In this document: positions 3,442-23,063 of the stretch, in pieces
Position numbering within the stretch: the first letter of the stretch is position 1
Layout of the letters: each line of letters starts with the position of its first letter
Notes under the pieces: generated by a model
What the model was told of the DNA's origin: nothing
Database searches by the model: none
Seen by the model: the letters and a program-made list of their open reading frames with translations, nothing else
NCBI GenBank assembly: GCA_963746845.1
Contig: CAVVCZ010000005.1
Span: 352,001 to 416,000 of the forward strand
Origin: an uncultured Chloroflexia bacterium
GTDB lineage: Bacteria > Chloroflexota > Limnocylindria > Limnocylindrales > CSP1-4
Direction of reading: 5' to 3'
DNA length: 64,000 nt
Made by a program: the position numbers and the translations under genes

Positions 3442-4272
3442 TCAGCGCCGGATCGTGACGCCCTGATCCTCGACGAGCCGGAGGAGCTCCGCCGCATTCG
3501 CCTGGCTCGCGGCGACGCAGATCCGCCCATAGGAATCCTCGTAGACCAGCAGCGCTCCGGGGTCGACCTCGCCGAACGTGCCCTGCCACGGCACGTCCAC
3601 GAGCTGGTCCGGACCGCCGGATCGGCCGGCGATGTCGAGGTGGAGCCGGTCGCCGGCCCGGACCGGGCCGATCGCGGCCTCCAGGTCGGCCCGCAGGCCG
3701 GCGAGCTTGATGTTGCCGAACGTGTCGATGTAGACCACCGAGGATCGGAGCGCGCCGTCACCGAGGATCGGGTCGGCGATCGGCGACGGCGCGAGACGGG
3801 CCGGGTCGAGAGCTCGGCCGAGGTCCTCGATCGGGACGCCGAGCGACAGGTGGGCCGCGGCCGGGGCGAAGATGTCTCGACCATGGAAGCTGGTGCTCAC
3901 CAAAGGGAGTCGGTAGGCCTCGGCCTCCAGGACGTGGACCCGGTCGATGCCCCCGAGTCGGCCGGCTGCCGCGACGAGAAGCCCGTTGTCGGGGCCGACG
4001 AGGACGTCGCCCCGGCCCGTCGCGATCGCCACCGACAACCGCCCCGTGCCGACACCCGGGTCGACGACCGCGACGTGCTGCCCGATCGGCATCCAGGGGA
4101 GGGCGCACCACAGGAGGAGCGCCCCGTCGCGAATGGCGTACTTGTGGACGTCGTGGCTGATGTCGACGATCCGGGCGTCCGGTGCGATCCCGAGGATCAC
4201 GCCGTGGAGGATCCCGGCGCTCGGATCACGCGCGCCGAAGTCCGTGAGCAGGGTGATCAGTGGCTGGGCCAT
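3442..4272 (-). CDS. SAM hydroxide adenosyltransferase (DUF62, SAM-dependent chlorinase/fluorinase superfamily)
   Basis: N-terminal LLTDFG, VVDPGVGTGR, VGPDNGLL, STSFHGRDIFAPAAAHL, YIDTFGN motifs; Asp-Arg-His triad of the hydrolase subfamily present. Confidence 0.9.
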   Translation of the reverse strand: MAQPLITLLTDFGARDPSAGILHGVILGIAPDARIVDISHDVHKYAIRDGALLLWCALPWMPIGQHVAVVDPGVGTGRLSVAIATGRGDVLVGPDNGLLVAAAGRLGGIDRVHVLEAEAYRLPLVSTSFHGRDIFAPAAAHLSLGVPIEDLGRALDPARLAPSPIADPILGDGALRSSVVYIDTFGNIKLAGLRADLEAAIGPVRAGDRLHLDIAGRSGGPDQLVDVPWQGTFGEVDPGALLVYEDSYGRICVAASQANAAELLRLVEDQGVTIRR

Positions 4273-4339
4273 CCGGCGCGATCCTACGGCGTCCCTGCCG
4301 GCACGTGTGCAGGCCCGGATCGAAGGGACGCCGGAGACG

Positions 4340-4385
4340 AAAACCCCGAAGCGGCGCCTGGAGGAGGGAAGGCGCCGCTTCGGGG
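4340..4385 (-). terminator. Intrinsic terminator of the small-ORF transcript
   Basis: 16-bp perfect stem (4344-4359/4370-4385) followed by TTTT on the minus strand. Confidence 0.8.
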
Positions 4386-4462
4386 AGGAGGCCGTGACGA
4401 CGGGAGGAGGGTTCCATCGTCACCGCGGGTGGAGTCCGGGCTGGGAGCGCAGCCGCTCCGTT
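4340..4462 (-). ncRNA. Candidate 3'-UTR sRNA: two stem-loops with CCUCCUC(C) loops, the last followed by UUUU (cuckoo/CcsR-like)
   Basis: Minus strand: GTGACGATGG-AACCCTCCTC-CCGTCGTCAC (4423-4394), linker GGCCTCCT, CCCCGAAGCGGCGCCT-TCCCTCCTCC-AGGCGCCGCTTCGGGG-TTTT (4385-4340). Confidence 0.55.
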
Positions 4463-4464
4463 GT

Positions 4465-4815
4465 TCAGTGCAGATGCGGATCCGCTGGCTCGGCGAAGTG
4501 ACCGGTGCGGTTCATCTCGCGGAGGAAGAGGAGCTGGTTGATCTGGCGGAGGGTCCAGTGCGTCTCGGCGACCGAGATCCCGGCGAGGTAGGCGGTGAGA
4601 TTGGCCGCCTCGTCAGGCGCCAGACCCCTCATGAGGAGGTTCCGGTACGTCGCCCGGGTGTGGACCTCCGGGCTCGAGGCCGGGCTGGACGACGTCATGG
4701 TGTCGGTGTCCGACCCAGACGCGACCGCGGAGGCCGCCGCGATGACTGGCCAGGACGAGGCGGCGCGAGACGATCGCCCCGTTCCCCGTTCCCCTCGACG
4801 CGCCTGGCCTGCCAT
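4465..4815 (-). CDS. Small hypothetical protein (77 aa from ATG 4698, or 116 aa from 4815)
   Basis: Protein-like core TRATYRNLLMRGLAPDEAANLTAYLAGISVAETHWTLRQINQLLFLREM with GC3-biased codons; followed by the hairpin/terminator. Confidence 0.7.
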   Translation of the reverse strand: MAGQARRGERGTGRSSRAASSWPVIAAASAVASGSDTDTMTSSSPASSPEVHTRATYRNLLMRGLAPDEAANLTAYLAGISVAETHWTLRQINQLLFLREMNRTGHFAEPADPHLH

Positions 4816-5025
4816 GGTTCACCCGATCCGTCCTGATGTCTCGATCTGCGGGCGTCCTGCTCGCGATTGGTCCCTTCGTGATCGATCCGGGGAGCGGATG
4901 GTCCGGGGTCCGCGGATCGAGCTGTTCGGTGTGGTGATCGGGATGGTCGATCGATGGTCGTGCCCGCACGATGACCCGTCGGTCCCCCTCCCCCCGGTAC
5001 TTGCGCCGACTCCGTCCAACGTCCG

Positions 5026-6261
5026 ATGCAGGGGGCCCCGGTAGACTCCCGATTCCACCCGACCCTGGAGCCTCGCGTGCGTGTCCGGACCTTCGAGCTG
5101 CGGCTGATCGGCCTCGTCCTCGCCGTGTGCTGGGTCGTGGCCGCCGCCGACGTCCTCATCGGCTATCGACCGGGCGGGCCGATGGACGTGGCCGTCGGGA
5201 TCGCCGCGCTCGTCCCCGCGCTTGTCGCCCTGGCCGGCGTCGTCTGGCCGCCGGTCGCCCGGGGCGATCGCGGCTTCGCGGCCATGATCTGCCTCGCCGC
5301 CGGCTGTCTCCTCCTCCTCGTCCCGTCGATCGCCGACGTCTCCGGCCAGCTGGGTGGCCGCGGGGCGCAGACCCTGCTGCCGTCCGTCGAGGCCGGCTAC
5401 CCGTGGGTCCTCGCGCTGATCGGGACGTGCCTGTTCAGCGGCTTCGGGATCGCCCGGCGGCTGCTCGGGCCGGCGGCCATGCGTCGCCACCGGATCTTCC
5501 GCGGGTTCGTCATCGCGTCGCTCCTGGCCGGCGGGAGCGCGCTGGTGTTCGCCGCCGCGGCCATGGCCAACGAGCTTGCGCTGCGTGATCGGATCGCCGC
5601 GGCGTCCCGGTTCGGACCGACCGAGCTCGACCGCGATCCGCCCTCGTGCGACGGAGCGATGGGGATCGGGACGTGGGCCGAGCTCGCGGTGCGTCTCGAT
5701 GGAACCGTCGACGGACGCTCGCTCGGCTCGGTCGACATCACGGGCGAGCGCTCGGTCGCTGACGTCCATTGGCTCGCCTACGTCGCGACCAACAACGAGC
5801 TGGGGTTCCATGGCACGGCCACCCTCGGCGACGGTGCGTGGATCCGCCTCACCTCGGGCGTCTGGCGGCGCGCGACGGCCGGCGAGGTCGGCGATCCGGA
5901 TCTCGACCTCACGGCCTTCCGGACCGCCCTCTCGCCGGAGGCCCGGGCAGCCGCGGAATCCCGCGGCGTCTCGATCGTCGAGGGCGCCCGCGCGCGGGAG
6001 TGCCGGATCGCGATCGACGGCCCGACGTTCAAGGCGGCGTTCCCGCAGGCCGCCTGGCTCATCGGCGACGCGGACCTCGCCCACTGGCGCGGCCAGCTCG
6101 ACTACTGGGTCTTCCTCGACGGGCAGATCGGGCGGATCACGGGCAGCGTCAACGGGGACGCGGCCGACATCGAACCCGGCGCGCTCCAGTCGACGATCCG
6201 CGTGGACCTGTCGGCGACGGATCGGAACACGCCGATCCACCTGACACCGCCGGCTCCGTGA
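5026..6261 (+). CDS. Hypothetical membrane protein (about 5 N-terminal TM helices + extracytoplasmic beta-rich domain, possibly LppX/LprG-like)
   Basis: Hydrophobic segments in the first ~180 aa; C-terminal ...LDYWVFLDGQIGRIT...IHLTPP pattern; start uncertain. Confidence 0.65.
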   Translation: MQGAPVDSRFHPTLEPRVRVRTFELRLIGLVLAVCWVVAAADVLIGYRPGGPMDVAVGIAALVPALVALAGVVWPPVARGDRGFAAMICLAAGCLLLLVPSIADVSGQLGGRGAQTLLPSVEAGYPWVLALIGTCLFSGFGIARRLLGPAAMRRHRIFRGFVIASLLAGGSALVFAAAAMANELALRDRIAAASRFGPTELDRDPPSCDGAMGIGTWAELAVRLDGTVDGRSLGSVDITGERSVADVHWLAYVATNNELGFHGTATLGDGAWIRLTSGVWRRATAGEVGDPDLDLTAFRTALSPEARAAAESRGVSIVEGARARECRIAIDGPTFKAAFPQAAWLIGDADLAHWRGQLDYWVFLDGQIGRITGSVNGDAADIEPGALQSTIRVDLSATDRNTPIHLTPPAP

Positions 6262-6313: not shown

Positions 6314-7330
6314 GTGATCATGGCGACCATGGACGACGAGCGCGGCTCGGCGAAGCGGGACCGGCTGGCCCGGATGACCCGGATCCTCGCCCTGCTCAAC
6401 GCCCATCCCGACGGGATGAAGCCGGCGGAGATCGCCCACCGCGTCGACTCGTCCGTGCGCACGGTCTACCGGGACCTGCGCTCGATCGAGGGCGAGCTCG
6501 GGATGCCGCTCTGGTCGGATGCCGGCCGCTGGGGGATCGAGGCCGAGAACTTCCTGCCGCCCCTGAAGCTGACCCGGAGCGAGGCGATGGCGGTCGTGCT
6601 GTCGGCGCGGCTGATGGTCCGCTACGCGGTCACCTACGACCCGGACCTCGCCGCCGCTTTCGAGAAGCTCGCCGCGATCCTCCCGCCGGCCCTGCGCGAG
6701 CACGTGGATCGGAGCCTGGACGCGCTCTCGCGCCGACGAACCGACGAGGCATTCAGCCGCCACGTGCATCTCCTGACCCAGGCGTGGGCAGAGCGCCGGA
6801 TCGTCGCGTTCGACTACGCCCCCGCGCCGTATGCGCCGGAGGCGGCACCGCGGACGGCCCGCGTCCGCCCCTACCTCATCGAGCCGTCGCTCACGACGCA
6901 CGCGCTCTACCTGGTCGGCTGGGACGAGACCCGTGCGGCGATCCGGACGTTCAAGATCGAGCGGATGCTGGACGTGTCGATCACGCCCGAAGGGTTCCCG
7001 CCACCGGACGAGGATGTGGTCGCCGGGATGTTCGAGCGAGCGTGGGACATCATCGCGGACCAGGAGCCGATCGACGTGGTGCTGCGCTTCTCCCCGGCGG
7101 TCGCGAGCCGCGTCCGCGAGGCGCGCTGGCATCCGTCCGAGCGGGTCGATCCGACCGCCGACGGCGGCCTCACCTGGCGGGCGACCGTCGCCGGCCCGAT
7201 CGAGATCCGCCTCTGGATCCTGTCGTGGGGCGCCGACGTGGAGGTGCTCGAGCCGGCCTCGCTCCGTGACGACGTCGCGGCCACGCTGCGTCGAGCCGCC
7301 GCGCGCTACGACGCGGCGGAGGGACGCTGA
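6314..7330 (+). CDS. HTH + WYL + WCX transcriptional regulator (PafB/C-, DriD-like)
   Basis: HTH AEIAHRVDSSVRTVYRDLRSIE; WYL domain RVRPYLI...LYLVGWDETRAAIRTFKIERM; WCX tail WILSWGADVEVLEPASLR. Confidence 0.93.
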   Translation: MIMATMDDERGSAKRDRLARMTRILALLNAHPDGMKPAEIAHRVDSSVRTVYRDLRSIEGELGMPLWSDAGRWGIEAENFLPPLKLTRSEAMAVVLSARLMVRYAVTYDPDLAAAFEKLAAILPPALREHVDRSLDALSRRRTDEAFSRHVHLLTQAWAERRIVAFDYAPAPYAPEAAPRTARVRPYLIEPSLTTHALYLVGWDETRAAIRTFKIERMLDVSITPEGFPPPDEDVVAGMFERAWDIIADQEPIDVVLRFSPAVASRVREARWHPSERVDPTADGGLTWRATVAGPIEIRLWILSWGADVEVLEPASLRDDVAATLRRAAARYDAAEGR

Positions 7331-23024: not shown

Positions 23025-23063
23025 GCGGGCCGGGCCGTGGGAGGAGGACCCGGCCCGGCCCGC
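23025..23063 (-). terminator. 13-bp hairpin after araA with GGUCCUCCUCCCA loop on the ara mRNA strand; lies between convergent genes
   Basis: GCGGGCCGGGCCG (23025-23037) / CGGCCCGGCCCGC (23051-23063); plus-strand loop TGGGAGGAGGACC. Confidence 0.65.

Follow-up and report, generated by a model that had tools for sequence, protein, structure and literature searches.

A 64,000-nucleotide stretch of DNA from an uncultured Chloroflexia bacterium (GenBank assembly GCA_963746845.1, contig CAVVCZ010000005.1, positions 352,001 to 416,000 of the forward strand), called the window below, carries on its minus strand an open reading frame (ORF) for a small protein, sp116, and shortly behind it two large hairpins, HP1 and HP2. 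The apical loops of both display CCUCCUCC, the complement of the ribosome-binding site (Shine-Dalgarno sequence, SD). The original prediction, made from the sequence alone, had likened these hairpins to the cuckoo RNAs of Alphaproteobacteria and had proposed that gene and hairpins form a module of a small protein and a small RNA (sRNA). Is this a selected RNA, how is it tied to the gene in front of it, and on what would it act? We found an RNA whose structure is conserved and under selection, confined to one family-level lineage of the Limnocylindria. Judged by analogy with known systems, it is rather probable that it acts in trans as an Hfq-independent sRNA that occludes SD sites. Small RNAs with anti-SD loops are already known as a kind; the Limnocylindria form is new.

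Hairpins behind a small protein gene

The host is a soil member of the Limnocylindria (Chloroflexota); its assembly (G000) comprises 3.56 Mb in 12 contigs with 71% GC and is 92% complete. Limnocylindria are abundant, uncultured Chloroflexota of soil and freshwater. In a protein search the closest ORF homologs carried the NCBI name 'Candidatus Limnocylindrales bacterium', and 76 of the 80 best related loci in species-representative genomes were labelled Chloroflexota, Chloroflexi, Chloroflexia, Limnocylindr* or Anaerolineaceae. The lineage labels of protein matches and related contigs therefore place the host outside the Alphaproteobacteria, as had been supposed. The remaining four loci (L060, L064, L086 and L130) are sp116-RNA contigs in Acidimicrobiales, Verrucomicrobiia, Methylomirabilota and Saccharimonadales bins and are probably mis-binned. 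The 3′ end of the genome's own 16S rRNA gene is GGAUCACCUCCUUUCU, the canonical anti-SD.

Analysis of the minus-strand sequence located the hairpins where they had been predicted, with the structures that had been given for them (Table 1). The 141-nt stretch 4330-4470 folds at -73.4 kcal/mol, compared with -50.6 +/- 3.7 kcal/mol for 200 dinucleotide shuffles (z = -6.1), none of which (0/200) was as stable as the native stretch. The RNA would be about 105-130 nt long, with two stable hairpins, a near-invariant CCUCCUCC in each apical loop, and HP2 doubling as intrinsic terminator.

A third and shorter hairpin, HP0, precedes them and has no CCUCCUCC-type loop motif in the window. A hairpin of varying sequence is present at this position in many relatives. 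Its mean energy over 79 sequences was -17.1 kcal/mol against -15.7 kcal/mol in shuffles, and it was more than 3 kcal/mol better than its own shuffles in only 15 of the 79. Being overall no better than shuffles, HP0 was rejected as a supported helix. The linker 5′ of HP1, CAACYGAAUA, is the sole single-stranded stretch that contains A and U; it is kept in many relatives, is degenerate in the window and, from its sequence, is a plausible endonuclease site.

Conservation and covariation

At the DNA level, 41 related genomes were searched: the locus was present in 23 of 24 congeners of the window genome and in 1 of 16 members of the sister family. In all 20 loci fetched, the window included, the ORF is followed by the hairpins. 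The simple two-hairpin form is present in 18 of these, while in L002 and L016 the HP2 loop encloses one more hairpin with a CCUCCUCC loop. When the 18 simple same-genus sequences were folded together with RNAalifold, HP1 and HP2 were obtained with 25 pairs, 14 of which were changed on both sides in at least one sequence. A covariance model, R1, was built from the linker, HP1 and HP2 of the same 18 sequences. At E <= 1e-4, and with genomes at least 85% complete, R1 located the RNA in 90 of 141 genomes of the family, representing 29 of 39 genera. A class-wide search gave matches in 28 of 35 same-family genomes, in none of 5 from a small-genome sister family, and in 1 of 39 and 7 of 40 genomes from two other families. 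The matches in these last two scored at most 31 bits and were rejected; the five inspected proved to be coding sequence or ordinary terminators lacking the two loops.

Covariation was analyzed in 78 distinct sequences, namely the window and loci reached via the protein, aligned by fitting to the model, with kinship inflating the counts. Standard pairs made up 95.6% of the pair cells, compared with 29-52% when the 3′ partners were slid by 1-3 columns. Compensatory (double) changes were observed in 18 of 22 base pairs, and none of 500 column shuffles reached any of five pairing measures. In HP2, 99% of the cells were paired and 11 of the 14 pairs of helices 4-5 showed compensatory changes. The independent MAFFT/RNAalifold result agrees with this signal.

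The loop motif is conserved together with the stems. CCUCCUCC is present in the HP1 loop of 67 of 79 sequences and in the HP2 loop of 77; CCUCC or CUCCUC was found in HP1 in 77/79 and CCUCC in HP2 in all 79. The 3′ untranslated regions (UTRs) of homologs thus keep CCUCCUCC loops on stems with compensatory changes. Three anti-SD motifs had been noted, and all three are present in the window; only the two loop motifs are conserved, the third, in the HP1-HP2 linker, being specific to the window genome and not kept in the alignments of relatives. In 3 of the 79 sequences (L074, L086 and L132) a further CCUCCUC(C)-loop hairpin has been gained inside the HP2 loop, giving a three-motif variant; L002 and L016 may be the same genomes as some of these.

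Some of the genomes are unpublished. One (G010, locus L005) supplies 1 of the 18 rows of alignments A1 and A2, hence of R1, and 1 of the 35 rows of alignment A3. G212 was positive in the family RNA and protein searches, G122 gave one weak class-wide match, and G423, G507, G570, G307 and G390 entered the phylum-wide pattern scan described below. No conclusion rests on any single unpublished genome.

Table 1. Coordinates of the RNA element, its second copy and the neighbouring genes. Positions are those of the window unless a contig is given.
Feature	Position	Strand	Description
HP0	4444..4459	minus	6-bp hairpin GGAGCG-GCUG-CGCUCC, loop GCUG; begins 5 nt past the sp116 stop; tentative part of the RNA
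RNA core (linker + HP1 + HP2 + tail)	4337..4443	minus	R1 match, 88.8 bits, E = 4e-20
HP1	4394..4423	minus	30 nt; 10 bp including one U-G pair; 10-nt apical loop AACCCUCCUC, anti-SD-like
HP1-HP2 linker	between HP1 and HP2	minus	GGCCUCCUCC
Third CCUCCUCC motif	4384..4391	minus	in the HP1-HP2 linker; overlaps the foot of HP2
HP2	4344..4385, UUUU at 4340-4343	minus	42 nt; 16 bp; 10-nt loop UCCCUCCUCC; intrinsic-terminator-like 3′ end
sp116	4465..4815	minus	116 aa; ATG start; stop codon 4465-4467; orphan small protein gene
Second RNA copy	G000 C2:193301-193417 (L025:1501-1617)	plus	R1 match, 55.5 bits, full length; unlinked
S-adenosylmethionine (SAM) hydroxide adenosyltransferase / (R)-SAM hydrolase-like gene	3442..4272	minus	PF01887 at 1.3e-45, PF20257; downstream, outside the RNA
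mem411	5026..6261	plus	411 aa; no Pfam family; upstream divergent neighbour, synteny anchor
WYL/WCX/HTH (PafBC-like) regulator gene	6314..7330	plus	two genes upstream of the locus

The small protein

The gene sp116 is a real gene of an orphan protein family and does not encode a DUF1127 protein. Differences in the core of 20 same-genus genes are distributed over codon positions 1, 2 and 3 as 1448, 994 and 3341. A search of a 90%-identity collection gave 947 homologs at E <= 1e-3, and none of the 120 best listed carried a Pfam domain; a profile of sp116 detected 497 clusters at 50% identity, nearly all of 55-230 aa. No family was found for the protein in Pfam or NCBIfam, and at E <= 1 Pfam gave only chance-level matches to other families. 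DUF1127 (PF06568), which the original prediction had thought not obvious here, was absent from these matches and had no match in the 92%-complete genome.

In alignment A3 (35 sequences) the protein begins with a conserved MAGQARRG.RG.GRSSR, followed by an Ala-rich stretch, a variable Ser/Thr/Pro linker and a core of about 55 residues, Y-R-x-L...G-L-x-P-x-E-A-A-N-L-T-A-x-L-x-G...W...L-L-F-L-R. The more distant homologs, 82-107 aa long, have only the core. A signal-peptide reading of the N-terminus was dropped, as distant homologs are without that region. AlphaFold2 predicted a three-helix core at about 49-103 (helices 49-62, 67-77 and 89-103; block pLDDT about 87-94) behind an Arg-rich, disordered N-terminal part. 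Comparison of this model with the PDB by Foldseek gave nothing at E <= 0.001; the best rows were weak, homeodomain-like three-helix ones with E 1.5. A wide VIA-align search reached a Z of at most 5.8, no more than the noise expected of helical models, and in the ESM Atlas the only matches were Chloroflexota clusters without a name; no functional lead came of these searches.

The region upstream of sp116 (4816-5025, minus strand) is conserved in the genus, with GGGTCATCG, CCGAACATCC, ACCACACCGGAG and ACAGGACGGAAC-GGTGCACC-ATG, and has no Rfam match. CCGAACATCC resembles the CCGAATATCC linker 5′ of HP1, and CCGAACAUCC, also in the conserved 5′ region, is similar to the CAACYGAAUA form of that linker. 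Pairing of the RNA with its own sp116 mRNA was considered and rejected: the conserved 5′ region has no GGAGG, the start context being ..ACAGGACGGAAC-GGUGCACC-AUG.

Coupling of gene and RNA

At 78 of the 80 loci found via the protein, a full-length R1 match lies within a few tens of bases past the ORF. Of the two exceptions, L073 is on a contig that ends 7 nt after the gene, and L125 has a partial, HP2-like match of 21.7 bits. When the same 141 family genomes were searched jointly with the RNA model and the protein profile, both RNA and sp116 were found in 61, the RNA only in 29 (29 of 90 carriers), sp116 only in 5 and neither in 46; the genomes being related, no statistic was drawn from these numbers. 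Given the linkage at 78/80 loci and the RNA-only genomes, sp116 is nearly always accompanied by the RNA, and of the two it is the RNA that is more widespread and more autonomous. The proposed module of small protein and sRNA thus stands as a linkage, but it is facultative.

Synteny was compared at 25 loci of the family. The usual gene order is mem411 (divergent), sp116, RNA, SAM hydrolase, with sp116 present at 15 loci and the SAM hydrolase gene downstream at 13. At five loci without sp116, four of them in genomes of one genus and one in another, the divergent mem411 starts about 105-165 nt upstream of the RNA; in four of these five genomes (93-97% complete) no sp116 was found anywhere. Since only a divergent gene lies upstream, the RNA at sp116-less loci must, as far as the sequence tells, be driven by its own promoter, from which it would be transcribed in genera without sp116. 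Hexamers resembling a -10 box, e.g. GATACT, are present just upstream of HP0 at these loci.

The SAM hydrolase gene has a -10-like box TAGGAT at 4281-4286, 8 nt before its ATG on the minus strand, and relatives have TACGAT, TACCAT or TAGGAT (TAnnnT) 6-8 nt ahead of the start codon. This sequence pattern suggests a leaderless mRNA with its own promoter. It bears on the idea that the RNA is a 5′ leader or attenuator governing read-through into the SAM hydrolase gene. That idea draws on the position of the gene, about 70-130 nt downstream of the RNA in 13 of 25 related loci; yet the gene is not downstream in the other 12, nor at the second copy of the RNA, its conserved TAnnnT box points to a promoter of its own, and no riboswitch or leader family of Rfam was matched. 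We regard a leader function as very improbable.

Second copy and other occurrences of the motif

The 8-mer CCTCCTCC occurs 466 times in the 3.56-Mb genome. The pattern CCTCCTCC-N20-60-CCTCCTCC, searched on both strands, occurs only twice, at the window site and in a paralogous copy on contig C2. This second copy has an HP0 loop UCCUCC, a linker ACAACUGAAUA, an HP1 loop rich in CUCCUCCCUCCUCC and an HP2 loop CCCUCCUCCUCC. It is located directly behind a different small ORF (ORF and copy together C2:193157-193417, plus strand; L025:1357-1617), the 40-aa version of which, MDPLG...LDLAALQLGG, has a hydrophobic helix and an Arg-rich tail. The 40-aa ORF is kept in the three same-genus genomes tested, is matched weakly in 4 of the 78 other genomes of the family and belongs to no Pfam family. 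No sp116 paralog was found near the second copy and no SAM_HAT gene downstream of it. Two R1 matches were found in most genomes of the window genus.

Could the hairpins be a structure that acts in cis only, terminating or stabilising the sp116 transcript and insulating the leaderless SAM hydrolase promoter, with C-rich loops that serve termination or exonuclease resistance? HP2 with its UUUU is terminator-like, 78 of 80 sp116 genes end in the two-hairpin structure, and several other genes end in single CCUCCUCC-loop hairpins, e.g. at window 23025-23063. A hypothesis quoted in the paper on the actinobacterial 6C RNA (PMC6486639) takes C-rich stem-loops to be alternative terminators in high-GC bacteria. 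However, the RNA is retained where sp116 is missing and only a divergent gene lies upstream, and a whole second copy is present at an unrelated locus. HP1 is dispensable for termination, yet its loop motif and its pairing are conserved. Gain of the extra CCUCCUC-loop hairpin in 3/79 sequences, and in L002 and L016 (possibly the same genomes), also speaks against a function restricted to the 3′ end of the transcript, which we consider unlikely.

Single hairpins (8-17 bp) with a CCUCCUCC loop were observed elsewhere. The one in the window (minus strand) starts 8 nt past a stop codon; further ones are located at G000 C2:272329-272367, C4:242348-242396, C6:345473-345508 and C12:9033-9059. They may be terminators with anti-SD loops or additional small RNAs. 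A phylum-wide scan for CCTCCTCC-N20-50-CCTCCTCC gave matches in 220 of 401 genomes, those listed being mostly coding-like or simple repeats; as the pattern reads the same backwards, its control was identical and the scan is uninformative on other anti-SD sRNAs. In G595, a genome of another Chloroflexota family, CCTCCTCC-N-CCTCCTCC occurs 82 times in 2.7 Mb (e.g. C1:1130499-1411387). These units resemble a dispersed repeat in which CCUCCUCCC is paired with GGGAGG-rich arms, and are distinct from the Limnocylindria RNA.

Expression, RNA machinery and possible targets

Contigs from relatives were found in four soil RNA-library runs of four studies (at least 85% identity), the runs sharing only 0.04-0.11 of the query words. 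They cover 4341-4429, that is both hairpins, differing at 6 positions and by 1 gap over 89 nt, as well as parts of the ORF. One contig of 226 nt joins the 3′ part of the ORF with HP2. HP2 is covered by four contigs, of which three break off at 4341, 4346 and 4353 and one extends 111 nt beyond. These contigs are weakly consistent with co-transcription with the ORF and with termination at HP2; stretches that they leave uncovered carry no information.

Neither Hfq nor RNase E/G was found in the genome (92% complete). It encodes RNase Y (C4:707000-707566) and RNase J (C4:825892-826194) and, with these two and no Hfq or RNase E/G found, therefore has an RNA decay set of Gram-positive type. The RNase E type of 3′ UTR processing known from CcsR, a cuckoo RNA, cannot apply as such, as no RNase E/G was found.

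In a crude scan based on GC3 (G+C at third codon positions) about 284 ORF starts were preceded by GGAGG, with control 5-mers giving 110-322, and the full GGAGGAGG, to which the loops hold the exact complement, preceded 15. About 246 starts had a leaderless-type TAnnnT 6-8 nt upstream, compared with 69 for a control motif. From these counts the organism seems to use both SD-led and leaderless initiation, and only SD-led mRNAs would be possible targets. Looser filters gave 51 starts preceded by GGAGGAGG, from which 20 with a short upstream in-frame extension were chosen by eye; 19 were scanned against Pfam, L196 being left out. Among the resulting candidate targets, which carry GGAGGAGG 4-13 nt ahead of the start, are transport genes (three ABC substrate-binding proteins, an ABC ATPase, an ABC-2 permease and an amino-acid permease), a glutamine-synthetase-domain protein, a formamidase, an amidohydrolase and a CO-dehydrogenase flavoprotein.

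The same data invite a different explanation, in which the RNA would bind protein or serve as a decoy: a mimic of the 16S 3′ end that titrates a factor, a ligand of sp116, or a global competitor for SD sites favouring leaderless mRNAs. Its CCUCC core is identical to that of the genome's own 16S anti-SD, the genome apparently mixes SD-led (about 284) with leaderless-like starts (about 246 against 69 in the control), and sp116, with its Arg-rich tail, comes with the RNA in 61 of 66 genomes and at 78 of 80 loci. There is also the precedent of CcaF1, a small protein that binds the cuckoo RNAs of its own 3′ UTR (PMC8034643). On the other side, no RNA-binding relative of the sp116 fold is recognisable (Foldseek best E 1.5; VIA-align best Z 5.8), and 29 of the 90 genomes that carry the RNA have kept it with no sp116 present. 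A decoy or protein-binding role thus appears to us improbable, about on a level with a role in cis only.

Proposed mode of action

The reading that we favour is a trans-acting sRNA. In the window genome the RNA would form the 3′ end of the sp116 mRNA and may be released from it by RNase Y or RNase J, which are proposed because no RNase E was found. The exposed C-rich loops have a CCUCC core, as does the 3′ terminus of the host's 16S rRNA, and would pair with the GGAGG SD of a subset of mRNAs. Such pairing would block ribosome loading and would need no chaperone of the Hfq type; chaperone-free pairing has been shown for the mycobacterial 6C RNA (PMC6486639) and proposed for cuckoo/CcsR.

Several observations weigh against trans action. 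Targets are known as candidates only, and CCUCC would match hundreds of SD sites, which leaves target specificity unexplained. HP2 is needed as a terminator anyway, and other single terminator-like hairpins in the genome have CCUCCUCC loops, so that C-rich loops are perhaps partly a local style of terminator. U-tracts are poor in many relatives in the alignment, and R1 was silent in 51 of the 141 family genomes. The RNA-library contigs show neither RNA ends nor abundance, and RNA libraries may contain DNA.

Comparison with known RNA families

No Rfam gathering score was reached at the window site, nor, among 4,227 families, in 20 related loci with the second copy and stand-alone forms included, and membership in an Rfam family was therefore rejected. 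At permissive thresholds the best match was Scr3202 (RF02833), the 95 model positions of which were all aligned, at 39.6 bits (E = 9e-4; gathering score 52). A first look at the whole genome gave nothing over the Scr3202 cut-off; the window's own site was likewise not returned. The cuckoo families were also below threshold: ar14 (RF02344) scored 22.1 bits against 58.8, and CcsR1 (RF02791), with only HP2 covered, 20.4 against 65.3. 6C RNA (RF01066) was missing among the matches to 3900-5300 even at E <= 1, and none of the 20 related loci reached its gathering score. The description as cuckoo-like therefore stands for the two-hairpin, CCUCCUCC-loop terminator architecture and fails for membership in the Rfam cuckoo families.

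In the literature we found no regulatory RNA described for Limnocylindria. A full-text search returned no paper joining Limnocylindr* with non-coding RNA, and a search for Chloroflex*, anti-Shine-Dalgarno and sRNA turned up only one irrelevant review.

Cuckoo RNAs are defined by 2-4 adjacent hairpins with CCUCCUCCC in each loop, hairpins being 24-50 nt and loops 9-27 nt long (Reinkensmeier & Giegerich 2015, PMC4615179); of the 2,680 prokaryotic genomes screened in that study, only 78, all of them alphaproteobacteria, contained the 321 cuckoo RNAs. HP1 (30 nt) and HP2 (42 nt), each with a 10-nt loop, fall within these sizes, and both present CCUCCUCCC, the ninth C in HP1 usually being the first base of the stem. 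The RNA resembles cuckoo/CcsR1-4 and ar14/NfeR1 in its adjacent hairpins of 30-42 nt, its loops of about 10 nt with CCUCCUCC(C) and the compensatory drift of its stems (PMC4615179, PMC8034643). Like cuckoo RNAs, it is present in more than one copy per genome, and its extra-hairpin variants recall their two-, three- and four-hairpin forms (PMC4615179); its main locus is in the 3′ UTR of a gene for a small Arg-rich protein (PMC8034643). It differs in phylum, being found here in Chloroflexota and not in Alphaproteobacteria, and it shares the architecture of cuckoo RNAs without their homology or context. CcsR (cuckoo CIN1) is bound by Hfq and processed by RNase E (PMC8034643), whereas neither Hfq nor RNase E/G was detected in the Limnocylindria genome, and its partner belongs to DUF1127, which sp116 does not. 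The resemblance is probably convergent, with an independent origin.

The likeness extends to CcaF1 (DUF1127, PF06568). sp116 is also small, has an Arg-rich region, and is encoded directly upstream of hairpins with anti-SD loops, with which it is apparently co-transcribed; it has no sequence relation to CcaF1, and its three-helix domain has no clear structural relative. It is a tentative and rather doubtful proposal, by analogy, that sp116 could be a new small RNA-binding protein that matures or stabilises the anti-SD RNA of its own 3′ UTR, a second invention of the DUF1127/CcaF1-CcsR type of module. If so, a small Arg-rich protein with a cuckoo-type sRNA would have arisen independently in a phylum that has neither Hfq nor RNase E, and the RNA, as a plentiful imitation of the 3′ end of 16S rRNA, could also alter the balance of translation between SD-led mRNAs and the leaderless half of the transcriptome. 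The orphan sp116 family, with its 497 clusters, gains a testable hypothesis.

Scr3202, an sRNA of Streptomyces, similarly has two hairpins with C-rich loops, the second being a terminator. The similarity, below gathering score, lies mainly in GC-rich stems and C-rich loops, and we found no function reported for Scr3202 in the literature we consulted on it (PMC8388888). The 6C RNA of Actinobacteria likewise belongs to high-GC organisms and has hairpins presenting C-rich loops (PMC6486639), which bind G-rich ribosome-binding sites without chaperones. Here, by contrast, the loop is the exact SD complement CCUCCUCC and not a run of at least six C, and the genomic context differs.

Overall, the RNA would be a well-supported candidate for Rfam. 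Hairpins that carry the exact complement of the SD, often behind a gene for a small basic protein, have apparently arisen independently of those in Alphaproteobacteria and Actinobacteria, and their occurrence without Hfq or RNase E bears on the generality of chaperone-free anti-SD regulation. Because the host has no detectable Hfq and RNase E/G, we prefer 6C to CcsR as a model; by analogy, mycobacterial 6C would be the best and nearest experimentally grounded mechanistic model for the Limnocylindria RNA.

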